From a virus: a stretch of DNA of 37,884 bases. Each line of letters begins with the position of its first letter. Positions within the stretch are counted from its first letter, which is position 1. The position numbers are program-made. Below are positions 6,001 through 9,000 of the stretch, piece by piece. Where the stretch lies: UHGV virus genome UHGV-2203451; one strand, given 5' to 3'.

Positions 6001-9000
6001 GTCCATTTTTTCTTTCGAATCCCAAGCCGATATACGGGTAATCGTCATTAATGGTGAGCCATGGTTTATCGCTTCAGATGTTTGTCGGGCTATAGGCATA
6101 GCAAATCATCGAGATGCTGTTCGAAAACTTGATGATGATGAGAAGGGCGTCGCTTCAACCGACACCCCTGGCGGTGAGCAAGAATCGATCATCATCTCCG
6201 AGTCAGGCCTCTACACACTGATCCTCCGCTGCCGCGACGCAGTGACACCAGGCACTATCCCCTACCGCTTTCGTAAATGGGTTACAGGTGAGGTTCTTCC
6301 TCAGATCCGCCGCACCGGAAGTTACATTAAAAACTCGCTCCCGCAGGAAGAACGCATAAAGATGGTTGCCGACCAGGTAGCCAACGCCACAGCATCAGCA
6401 GTGATGCAGGCAATGAAGATAGAGAACAAAACCTACAGTGCCCCACTGAAGCCCGGCTACCGCAGCCTGATTCATTCGCCGTCTGGTGTTCTCGGCCTGA
6501 CGGAGAACTCACTGCTGATGAATCTGCTGAACCAGTTACAGGAAGACGGGCACGACGTATCGGGCGCGGCGGCGGAGCTGACCACCATGTTCTGCTACAT
6601 CGTCGGTGTGAGCAAGTGCCTGCGTGATATCCAGACGCACGCGGAGTACATCAACGACAAGGCTGGGTTCTTCTGACGGGCGGCGGCACATGGATGTGCC
6701 TTTAAAATAATCATTGGCGATGTGATGTAGATTCGCGTAATATTACCTTACGGGTAAGAAAGCGTTTTTAATCTTCCCTTCAAAACGCGTCCTGTAGCCA
6801 AACATGGGAGGACGAAATGAAAACAAATACAACAAGAAAAGCGATGCCATACATTATCCCAGAAGCAGATTTCGACAGAAAACTGAACATGTCTGAGAAG
6901 AACACTAGTCACACCGAAAGCTACTTAGCGAAAGGTGTGGTTGATTTCGTTCTTCCGGGATTCACAACACCTTATGGTTATCGCCTTGTAAAATCTTGTA
7001 ATGGCGATCATTACAGAATGATTACTACCAGCGATACTCCAGAAACGGTGTATGCGGTTAAGTTAATCTTTCGGGAAGATATCGTCGAAGCTAAAAGAAC
7101 ATGTACGCAGATCATGGTATGGCGTACGCCTAATGTTATTCATGACCGTGCTGTTCATGGTTTGCCTCAGATTTTTTTTCAGTTCTTCCTAGAGCAATAT
7201 GCGATCGTTGTATCTGATGAGCAACAAACAATCGATGGGAGAAGATTCTGGGAAAGAATGATTTCTTGGGCTATAAACACCCCGGGATATAATGTATACG
7301 TTTCAGATGGCTCTGAAGAAGATAGACCTCTTAGCTTCATGACATCATGGGATGATTTCTATAGCCAGTGGGCTGATTTCTGTTGGGGCAGTGATAAAGA
7401 TGTGCATACCCACAGACTACTGGTTATAAGCAAAGATAAACTGCATTAATAGAAGCCCGCAGCGCGGGCTTTTTTGTGGACGAAACAAAAGTCAGTGCTA
7501 CACTCATTGACGCCACATTGAGGTGGCTTATAGATGGAAATTTCACAATGAAAAAAGCATTTGCTGCACTGTTCGTTTTGTTGTCTCTGGTAGCTTCAAC
7601 TCAGGCCTTTGCCGGTCGTTGTCAGCACGACAGCGATACTGCTGCTGACGGCTCCCGCTGCGGTGGGCGTTCTGCGGATTCCCGCCCGGGTGGCGGTGGC
7701 ATTCGTTAAAAACAAGGCCGCGAAAGCGGCCTGTTTGATCACTGTGCAGTTTTCGCTGATCGATTTTCAGCTCTAAATTCAAGAACCGTTTCAATATTTC
7801 TTTCCTTCAGCATATCAATAACATTTTTATTCATTTGACTATCACTGGTTAATAACTGGTAAACGTTGCTTCTCTCTTTATCAGAGTTTTCTTTAACAGC
7901 TGCTTTGCATGCCAAATGCTTATTGAAATTTTCTACATCGCTAGTACAGGAATTTACGGCTGCTGATGAAATATCAGACGCTGAAGAAACACCATCATCC
8001 AAACGTTTTATAGCATTTTCTATACATGAGTTAAGGGAATAAACGACAACTGAGCGATACCCTTCAGACGCACACCATTCTAAATTTCTTGAAGGATCGA
8101 GTGGTTTTACTTCGCTGGATTGAATTAACTTGTCAAAAACTGACTTATATTCAATCTGTTTTTTATCTATAGCCCATACTTCAGTAGCTGATTTATAATT
8201 CCCCGTATGCCTATTAACATCAAATCCATGTTTTATAAGCAAATCTGCCCATGAAAGATTTATTGATTCATTGTTATGAGGCCATTTTCCTGTCAGAACC
8301 GCCCCCATAGACCCCATATATCCGCCATATGATGGTATAGCACCATGGCTCAGTAACTTCTCAGCAACCACAGGGCAATTAATTACATAAGAGGCGTAAA
8401 GCCCATTCCATAAAGCCCCTCTATAGTAATCGCCACGATTAGGTTCTTTTAAGTCGATAGCCTTTGATAATTGTTCACACGTTTTGCATGCATCAAAGTT
8501 ATCCTTATTGCATTGCAATGAACTGGCAGCTGTAGGATTTACAGAGACTATTGAAAGCACTATGCCAAAAAACAAATTTATTTTTTTCATCCTATTTCAT
8601 CTGCTCTTCAACTTTATTTAGTAACGGTGATATTGCCCACAGGTTCTGAAAAGGTAGCATTTTACGGACCGCGTGGGTTTGCTGGCTGTCAAATTCTCCG
8701 TTAAGTACACCATTCGCAACCGTCGCGGCATCACCGCCAAGATCAAAGGTAGGACCAAGTAAAGCACCAATAGCATTACGACTCTGAAACCTTGATACCG
8801 GAGGCGCACCAAACATCGCGCCAAGACCAAACCTACCGCCGCTTATGTTCTCAACGGTATTCAGCGGCTCAGAGAGCCAGCCAAGCATTCCGCCCCGGTC
8901 GATCCCCTCTTTCACAAGGTTATTCCAGCTGTAGTCAATATCGCGACCGCTTAACTTCTGTTTCATCATATAGACCATTGAGCCAAGCGCAATCGTGCCA

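Follow-up and report, generated by a model that had tools for sequence, protein, structure and literature searches.

A candidate repressor-controlled accessory cassette with a GNAT-like predicted product in a phiV10/epsilon15-type Escherichia coli prophage

The viral genome UHGV-2203451, 37,884 nucleotides that were analysed as a whole (the window), carries directly behind its antirepressor gene ant an open reading frame (ORF) for a protein of 210 amino acids (aa). This locus raises two questions: whether the gene is governed by the repressor of the prophage, and what its product does. Our answer, held tentatively and with a little less than even confidence, is a mobile, repressor-controlled early accessory gene, with a transferase-type effector in lytic growth as its proposed product. 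The parts of this answer differ in strength. The analysis establishes the anatomy of the cassette, the enrichment of its operator, its mobility, the purifying selection and the resemblance in fold; repressor binding, time of expression, enzymatic activity and target are proposed on that basis. A cassette under operator control is likely, and expression mainly in the lytic phase is slightly favoured. The transferase-type activity, which derives from a predicted fold, is the weakest link and rather doubtful.

The cassette and its operator

The ORF scan contained the 210-aa frame where the initial annotation had placed it, and the following elements surround it:

6685-6710, plus strand: hairpin GGCACAT-GG-ATGTGCC followed by TTTAAAATAA, read from the sequence just after the ant stop codon (6676)
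6714-6743, plus strand: putative sigma-70 promoter with -35 TTGGCG (6714-6719), an 18-nt spacer and -10 TAATAT (6738-6743), based on a conserved layout and 8/12 consensus positions
6742-6758, no strand: 17-bp palindromic operator ATTACCTTACGGGTAAG with a perfect TTACC-N5-GGTAA core and 0 mismatches to the initially proposed pattern
6759-6816, plus strand: 5' leader with the Shine-Dalgarno sequence GGGAGGA (6806-6812), read from the sequence
6817-7449, plus strand: coding sequence with ATG start for a soluble protein of 210 aa (24.6 kDa, pI 6.0), from the ORF scan, the phrog_1349 match and the predicted fold
7451-7475, plus strand: intrinsic terminator, stem-loop AGAAGCCCGC-AGC-GCGGGCUUUU followed by a U-run, from folding against shuffles

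Because dN/dS is ~0.06-0.07 (pN 0.11-0.26 between gene copies; synonymous sites saturated at pS 0.67-0.83), the gene is truly coding, encodes a real protein and is under strong purifying selection. Its GC content is lower than that of the structural genes, as claimed initially (ORF 0.41, region 8592-11981 0.483, whole window 0.479). The strong Shine-Dalgarno sequence was also confirmed, 4 nt before the ATG. Likewise, the clean intrinsic terminator stood up to folding: the hairpin at 7451-7473 has a GC core of 6 bp (GCCCGC/GCGGGC) ahead of a T6 run, and its folding energy of -17 kcal/mol (z = -2.85) was equalled by 0 of 200 shuffles. A simple terminator scan did not report it. In the leader, a 6-bp stem pairs CGUCCU (6788-6793) with GGGACG-side partners (6809-6814) in the minimum free energy fold (fold z-score only -0.92). 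This stem might conceivably mask the Shine-Dalgarno sequence. The helix register was kept in 69% of cells among 15 homologues with zero compensatory changes and no separation from shuffles, and RNAalifold gave no consensus structure for the hairpin among homologues.

The initial annotation had described an ATTACC-N5-GGTAAG site over the -10. The site is present, but it covers the last two -10 bases and the start-site region, not the entire -10. The proposed pattern matched 27 times in the window against 1.95 expected, and the core TTACC-N5-GGTAA occurred at 14 sites against 0.85 expected by chance; by our own reading of the ORF lists, all 14 are intergenic. The palindrome is not a chance match. 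With a leave-one-out position weight matrix, the cassette site (6743) ranked seventh of the 14 at 21.3 bits, within the range of the repressor-flanking sites at 33385, 34097 and 34159 (20.7-22.9 bits), and the best non-site in the window reached 10 bits. TTACC-N5-GGTAA is scattered before nearly all transcription units of the window. The other sites and the repressor gene are as follows:

4246-4262: operator site before the small gene at 4338
5572-5586: operator site before the minus-strand YafO operon, with one mismatch
5696-5712: operator site before ant (core at 5697)
24038: operator site near the tRNA gene
27231 and 27249 (27231-27263): operator pair at the start of the terminase small-subunit gene
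30992 and 31054 (30992-31068) and 33000: operator sites, in pairs or single, before early genes
33337 and 33385 (33337-33399), 34097 and 34159 (34097-34173), plus a weak one at 33368: operator sites on either side of the repressor gene
33455-34039, plus strand: predicted prophage repressor, 194 aa, with two helix-turn-helix (HTH) domains (Pfam HTH_3, 1.2e-9, plus a second, weaker HTH-like match)

The interval between the repressor gene and a divergent Cro-like gene holds three operator-type sites, and two more follow immediately downstream of the repressor gene. This layout appears to be a distributed regulon, not a lambda-like two-operator switch. A similar 17-bp operator consensus is reportedly given in the epsilon15 genome paper. 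The repressor is 100% identical to those of phiV10 and vB_EcoP_ZX5, and a Pfam search found no peptidase (cleavage) domain in it. Overexpression of the ZX5 repressor (ORF21) blocks lytic growth, abolishes free phage and lowers lysis-gene transcripts by >99.9% (PMC9782041). From the distribution of the sites, we infer that the 194-aa repressor, possibly together with its Cro-like counterpart, recognises the palindrome. The cassette appears to carry the operator motif of the immunity region over a promoter, as a member of the regulon would. Because the same operator precedes ant and the small antirepressor-like gene at 4338, co-regulation with the antirepressor genes, already suggested in the initial annotation, is the natural reading.

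The cassette promoter is plausible but weak, and it is the weakest part of the observation. An independent promoter had been claimed; the layout is conserved in distant copies, whereas the agreement with consensus is modest and the promoter scan was silent at this position. The promoter gains credibility because its -10/operator register, TAnTAT followed directly by TACC, is identical to that of the ant promoter (TTGAAA-18-TATTAT, 10/12, 5668-5697), because the layout of -35 TTGnnn, -10 TAnnAT and operator is retained in the copies of phage LLS, L027 and L028 (alignment A5), and because this retention coincides with saturated synonymous sites, which suggests that the hexamers are under selection.

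The hairpin at 6685-6710 is probably a weak terminator that parts ant from the cassette. It is kept in loci with other cargo or another upstream region (alignment A2), and its U-tract is poor. The gene might instead lack a promoter of its own and be the distal gene of an ant operon, with the palindrome as a roadblock or a recombination relic. The poor U-tract, the uncalled 8/12 promoter and the adjacency of ant and the gene in most E. coli copies would suit such an arrangement. However, the promoter/operator accompanies the gene into phage LLS, where the upstream gene encodes a spanin, the -35/-10 hexamers are conserved despite saturated synonymous sites, and other cargo keeps the same promoter/operator. 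We therefore consider the operon arrangement quite improbable and retain a cassette with its own promoter.

A variable slot behind ant

The flanks of the window match phiV10, TL-2011b, ZX5 and other epsilon15-like podophages. The gene order (tailspike, accessory region, internal/ejection proteins, capsid, portal and terminase) is of the phiV10/epsilon15 type, and the immunity region lies around 33-34 kb. Judged by these features, the host element is a phiV10/epsilon15-type (Uetakevirus-like) E. coli prophage. The 800-bp region around the gene is 100% identical to avian pathogenic E. coli (APEC) O18 (CP006830), and at least part of it is common to 157 of 5,426 complete E. coli genomes. Because the APEC O18 prophage has a different tailspike, an endosialidase, the window comes from a close relative or a mosaic. 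The ORF positions place the 210-aa gene between two blocks, as had been stated:

1560-4142, minus strand: tailspike gene (ORF and library scans)
from 8592, minus strand: internal/ejection-protein genes (ORF and library scans)

E. coli prophages keep the order ant, 210-aa gene and 53-aa signal-peptide gene for either ant type (Bro-N or AntA) or tailspike. The content of the slot varies. The gene is carried by 93 of the 157 E. coli genomes with the 81 bp that follow ant. The slot contains a small gene and a YafO-family toxin gene in TL-2011b, EC.W1-9 and strain Nord58, two unrelated genes (55 and 147 aa) in strain M9682-C1, and is essentially empty in phiV10. Alternative cargo retains the same promoter/operator. 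In alignment A2, homology to an alternative-cargo locus extends through TAATATTACCTTAAAGGTAAA and then ends, and homology to a locus with a different upstream segment starts at GCGTAcTATTACC. Because these breakpoints flank the operator, the promoter/operator is the junction at which cargo is exchanged.

The lambdoid phage LLS has the same unit of promoter, operator, gene and terminator after its spanin (lysis) genes at the genome end. This copy reads TTGGCT-17-TACTAT followed by TACCCAGAAGGTAAA; nowhere else in the 42.9 kb is the operator core perfect, and the immunity region of LLS relies on other repeats. Operator-like sites also occur 66-90 nt upstream of other homologues (perfect in L034; one mismatch in L045, L037 and L027). 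In other phages, the gene often stands alone among tail or structural genes that run the opposite way, and in some it is present as two paralogues in tandem. Across ~35 loci, the gene neighbourhoods frequently included ant, Arc/Mnt and toxin-antitoxin genes but no obligate partner; among ~20 distinct contexts, 8 had an antirepressor gene within ~1.5 kb. In L034, which encodes a 70%-identical homologue, an Arc/Mnt-type repressor gene is immediately upstream and ant is adjacent. With its own putative promoter/operator and terminator, the cassette looks like a free-standing unit, as expected of a moron cassette.

Two known arrangements resemble this one. The P22-type moron slot (sieA, mnt, arc and ant) occupies the same neighbourhood between ejection-protein genes and tailspike, with deviant GC content and presence or absence among near-identical prophages. 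In P1, the immI operon comprises a C1-controlled promoter, the c4 antisense RNA and ant, and C1 operators are scattered through the genome. The window shares with P1 the use of one repressor with operators before many transcription units, including accessory genes, and a neighbouring ant with a repressor-controlled promoter followed by a C4-family RNA. It differs from P1 in the symmetry of its operator, a 17-bp palindrome where P1 has an asymmetric site, and in its repressor, which is unrelated and has two HTH domains. Here C4 is also preceded by an isrK-like RNA, and the phage is an integrating podovirus. The initial annotation had placed the gene at an immunity-I-equivalent position, where P22-type phages have exclusion and antirepressor functions. 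The isrK/C4 leader of ant and the L034 homologue behind an Mnt/Arc gene support an immI-equivalent position, but P1/P7 is a better fit than P22.

The main competing explanation is a classical moron expressed in the lysogen. Repression from a single operator would then be leaky or absent, and the gene would benefit the host or the prophage through anti-phage defence, superinfection exclusion or another form of lysogenic conversion. Such a role would be in keeping with the cassette's own promoter and terminator, its low GC content and presence/absence polymorphism, the lone opposite-orientation genes among structural genes of many other phages, and the islands shared with toxin-antitoxin modules. 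In P22, sieA lies downstream of mnt, and the L034 homologue is positionally equivalent to it. Moreover, the LLS copy is without cognate sites elsewhere, and so it would lack a cognate repressor except in a host that also harbours a phiV10-type prophage. A repressed prophage usually still expresses its morons, whereas the cassette has the operator of the prophage repressor on its promoter. This operator, with its perfect core over -10/+1, is as strong as the immunity-region sites, is conserved together with the promoter across saturating divergence, and serves as a recombination junction for cargo exchange, another difference from morons. A lysogen-expressed moron is thus unlikely, though a serious contender, and the protein itself bears on it further below.

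The protein family and its predicted fold

The initial annotation regarded the gene as an orphan, which it is not. The 210-aa protein matched phrog_1349 of PHROGs over its full length (E 2.5e-113; function listed as unknown). Sixty-three close homologues (37-99% identity) were found in prophages of Enterobacterales, including Escherichia, Enterobacter, Klebsiella, Serratia, Pectobacterium, Yersinia, Xenorhabdus, Photorhabdus, Providencia and others. When 1.84 billion representatives were searched with a profile, 889 clusters reached E<=1e-3, 266 of them E<=1e-10. All 63 homologues are named 'hypothetical' or 'phage protein', and a second large homologue search, with profile A3, yielded only the names 'hypothetical protein' and 'phage protein'. 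The identical protein is present in 93 of the 5,426 complete E. coli genomes, and the identical sequence in 1,116 indexed blocks of an assembly collection. Beyond the enterobacteria, a profile scan of genome contigs (11 loci) included a relative in a metagenome-assembled genome of Phenylobacterium (Alphaproteobacteria). Structural neighbours were found in phages including Agrobacterium phage Atu_ph07, and two phages with large genomes, Atu_ph07 and BCSR5 (227 kb), both of which we take to be lytic jumbo phages, encode relatives as well. In L070 (851-2148) and L071 (4186-5480), two tandem paralogues lie 15 bp apart; these are the most divergent relatives (~35% identity), and the arrangement hints at duplication or heteromer formation.

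The further claim that the protein has no recognisable domain holds for sequence profiles: it had no match in Pfam, NCBIfam or PADLOC and no PDB sequence match (profiles A1 and A3). It does not hold for the predicted structure. Remote homology and structure prediction, the checks proposed initially, led to the phrog_1349 family and to a GNAT-like predicted fold. The AlphaFold2 model, built on a 39-sequence alignment, reached a predicted local distance difference test (pLDDT) score of 80.4 and a predicted template modelling (pTM) score of 0.77, with the N-terminal 10 residues disordered. The GNAT core fold runs beta1-alpha1-alpha2-beta2-beta3-beta4-alpha3-beta5-alpha4-beta6. Compared with this superfamily, the protein adds an N-terminal segment of ~50 residues and extra strands, its similarity scores are low, and the 121 diverse family members have no sequence-profile match to any GNAT family. 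The fold thus appears GNAT-like but remote and divergent.

In alignments A1 and A3, the most conserved blocks are TQxxVWR...GxA...FF..LL and SDxxQTxxGxxFW; Y79, W102 and W145 are kept at >=90% across the 121 sequences, and C96, Q98, D134, T138, R143 and D164 also count as invariant. By eye, the conserved blocks map to the GNAT cofactor site, and in place of the canonical pyrophosphate-binding coenzyme A (CoA) loop between beta4 and alpha3 only the variants R103...G115-x-P/A117 or Q137-T-x-x-G141 were seen. Fusions are rare among the 121 members, and too few to lean on. They involve an MqsA zinc ribbon, DUF5397 and a weak SAD/SRA match. In one relative, the family domain is joined to the toxin-binding zinc ribbon of the antitoxin MqsA in place of the DNA-binding domain. 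In another (P0135), it is joined to an SAD/SRA-like modified-base reader (E 0.0022, below the Pfam cutoff), and a search with the SRA-like N-terminus against PDB sequences gave no match. PADLOC matched neither the fusion proteins nor the alternative cargo genes.

Several functions could be attached to such a fold. KacT, TacT3 and AtaT were among the weak structural hits of the model, and YafO toxin-antitoxin pairs occupy the same slot in other prophages. The protein could therefore be a GNAT-fold toxin of the TacT/AtaT/KacT type, which would acetylate aminoacyl-tRNA in abortive infection or host shutoff. However, no antitoxin gene (RHH/DUF1778 in the operons of TacAT, AtaRT and KacAT) is adjacent, no second gene lies between the promoter (6714) and the terminator (7475), the next gene behind the terminator encodes a secreted 53-aa peptide (phrog_14503), and no Pfam acetyltransferase matched, all of which makes a toxin very improbable.

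A non-catalytic GNAT-like protein, binding a ligand and modulating the lysis-lysogeny switch or the antirepressor module, would be comparable to ICL2 with its regulatory acetyl-CoA-binding GNAT-like domain. The unseen canonical loop, the proximity to ant and Arc/Mnt genes in 8 of ~20 contexts and the single MqsA zinc-ribbon fusion would agree with a regulator. The conserved blocks at the cofactor-binding place (by eye) would not, nor would the many family members far from immunity genes, in tail modules or after lysis genes. In addition, the slot is swapped independently of ant type, and the Bro-N and AntA versions share the gene. A regulatory role is improbable on this evidence.

A third possibility is a nucleic-acid modifier that resembles Mom of phage Mu, a divergent GNAT with a non-CoA donor that would protect phage DNA from restriction. 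The possible hairpin over the Shine-Dalgarno sequence is reminiscent of the control of mom by Com, and the fusion in P0135 to a weak reader of modified bases would fit as well. Mu Mom itself is a phage protein of ~230 aa, a divergent GNAT whose family membership long escaped recognition (PMC13219725). Nevertheless, the SRA match is unconfirmed by PDB and the hairpin is without covariation support; a Mom-like modifier has the slightest probability of the alternatives. The likeness to Mu Mom lies in size, in the role as accessory protein of a phage, in a GNAT-type fold missed by sequence classification and in expression under tight control, which for the 210-aa gene is the predicted state. Mu Mom, which modifies DNA adenine in a tRNA-dependent manner, offers a plausible model for a non-CoA transferase effector. 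The 210-aa gene differs from it in having no Com-like partner gene and no detectable homology. A homology to Mu Mom that included the catalytic constellation R111/S124/D149/R151 was considered and rejected (hhalign against A3: probability 0.14%, E 0.43, 19 columns).

The protein also bears on the lysogen-expressed moron. Its maximum 19-residue Kyte-Doolittle hydropathy is 1.05 and its predicted fold is globular, so it appears to be soluble and hence not a SieA-like membrane exclusion protein; SieA is an inner-membrane protein. Further points against a moron are the lack of a PADLOC match and the relatives in Atu_ph07 and BCSR5, which we take to be lytic.

Our preferred explanation, a repressor-controlled early accessory gene, would work as follows. 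The self-contained, horizontally mobile cassette consists of a putative weak sigma-70 promoter, operator, leader, 210-aa gene and terminator, placed in a variable slot between ant and the gene for a small secreted or membrane peptide. In the lysogen, the 194-aa two-HTH repressor would bind the 17-bp palindrome over the -10 and start site and keep the gene silent. The early operons, the YafO toxin operon, ant and the small antirepressor-like gene under SOS control would be silenced in the same way. Upon infection, or upon derepression mediated by an antirepressor, the cassette would be transcribed as an early gene, with transcription stopping at 7475. The soluble GNAT-like (acyl-CoA N-acyltransferase-like) product may then modify a component of the host or of a rival phage, in host takeover or counter-defence. 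Takeover or counter-defence is preferred to a benefit for the lysogen because of the repressor operator, the relatives in Atu_ph07 and BCSR5, which suggest a role not tied to lysogeny, and the precedents for phage GNAT-fold effectors. Besides Mom, phiKMV Rac (PMC7552054) is such a precedent, and so is AcrVA5.

Several points weigh against this explanation. The 121 family members had no GNAT model match in Pfam at E<=0.05, the canonical Q/R-x-x-G-x-G/A CoA-binding loop was not seen by eye in alignments A1 and A3, and no PADLOC or other defence or anti-defence family matched. The promoter TTGGCG-18-TAATAT, with agreement at 8 of 12 positions, was below threshold and uncalled. We infer both its firing and the binding of the repressor from the sequence. 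The LLS copy, without cognate sites elsewhere, would be expressed constitutively. Moreover, morons expressed in the lysogen likewise have their own promoter and terminator, low GC content and toxin-antitoxin genes nearby.

Neighbouring genes and implications

The ant gene (5981-6676) encodes a Bro-N protein, and its leader (5668-5980) is P1/Gifsy-like. The ant promoter, TTGAAA-18-TATTAT, is overlapped by the operator at 5696-5712. Downstream of it lies a match to Rfam isrK (5748-5823, 76.7 bits) with a terminator at its end, followed by a match to the C4 antisense RNA (5848-5933, 77.7 bits) between isrK and ant. A 78-aa ORF on the minus strand (5683-5919) is probably spurious. DUF1778 proteins normally partner GNAT toxins. 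In L008 (2606-3500), the prophage of E. coli M9682-C1, a DUF1778 (TacA/AtaR-type antitoxin) gene overlaps the start of the Bro-N antirepressor gene, an unexpected pairing, and takes the place that the isrK/C4 leader has in the window.

Upstream, the 85-aa gene at 4338-4595 matches phrog_450 and is homologous to the Ant C-terminal domain. It is preceded by the operator at 4246-4262 and by a near-perfect LexA-type SOS box, TACTGTATAAATATACAGTT (CTGT-N8-ACAG at 4301-4316), just upstream, and it looks like an SOS-inducible small antirepressor. Since the repressor has no cleavage domain and this LexA-type box stands before the 85-aa gene, induction driven by an antirepressor fits. Two overlapping minus-strand ORFs lie within 4620-5620. 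The distal one (4620-5231) matches phrog_1651 and is the positional counterpart of a YafO-family toxin gene in the RefSeq annotation of APEC O18; its upstream partner, running to 5571 on the minus strand, is likely the antitoxin. They follow a minus-strand promoter, TTGCCA-18-TAGAAT (5618-5589), and the one-mismatch operator at 5572-5586.

Downstream of the cassette, the peptide of the 53-aa gene (7548-7709) has a signal sequence and a tail rich in Gly and Arg, and it falls into phrog_14503 ('membrane associated protein'). The gene is kept downstream of the slot under any cargo, and TTGACG...TATAGA around 7509-7537 appears to be its own promoter. A 283-aa gene on the minus strand (7739-8590; signal peptide, very low GC of 0.36-0.41, phrog_6118 of unknown function), located between the slot and the genes for internal proteins, is present or absent among related prophages and is likely another accessory gene. 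Adjoining the tailspike gene, a hexapeptide-repeat transferase gene (869-1540, 223 aa; Pfam Hexapep, 1e-11) encodes a candidate surface-polysaccharide acetyltransferase, that is, a lysogenic-conversion function. The tRNA gene at 24375-24448 (73.3 bits) has an operator ~320 bp upstream; in the matching prophage of APEC O18, this gene carries the annotation tRNA-Arg.

Public genomes annotate the gene as hypothetical, and its PHROG family already exists; accessory slots, like accessory genes under repressor control, are of kinds described before. The new elements are the assignment of a remote GNAT-like fold, the size of the family and the operator as a junction for cargo exchange. We regard the result as a modest lead rather than a surprise, and if the product is an ordinary accessory protein without a phenotype, little is lost. 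More speculatively, phrog_1349 might represent a new and highly divergent line of GNAT-fold enzymes in phages. Their donor or target would be as unconventional as that of Mom (for instance a signalling nucleotide, nucleic acid or a protein of host defence), and their effect would be to disarm the immunity of the host. The phages of the phiV10 type would express the gene immediate-early from a plug-in slot with the operator as junction.

If the preferred explanation is true, the gene would be an entry point to a large uncharacterised phage protein family, which occurs in ~2% of complete E. coli genomes including K1, APEC and extraintestinal pathogenic (ExPEC) strains. An operator at the exchange junction would wire any incoming cargo into the lysis-lysogeny switch, and the timing of cargo expression, in the lysogen or only upon derepression, would change how prophage 'morons' are read.

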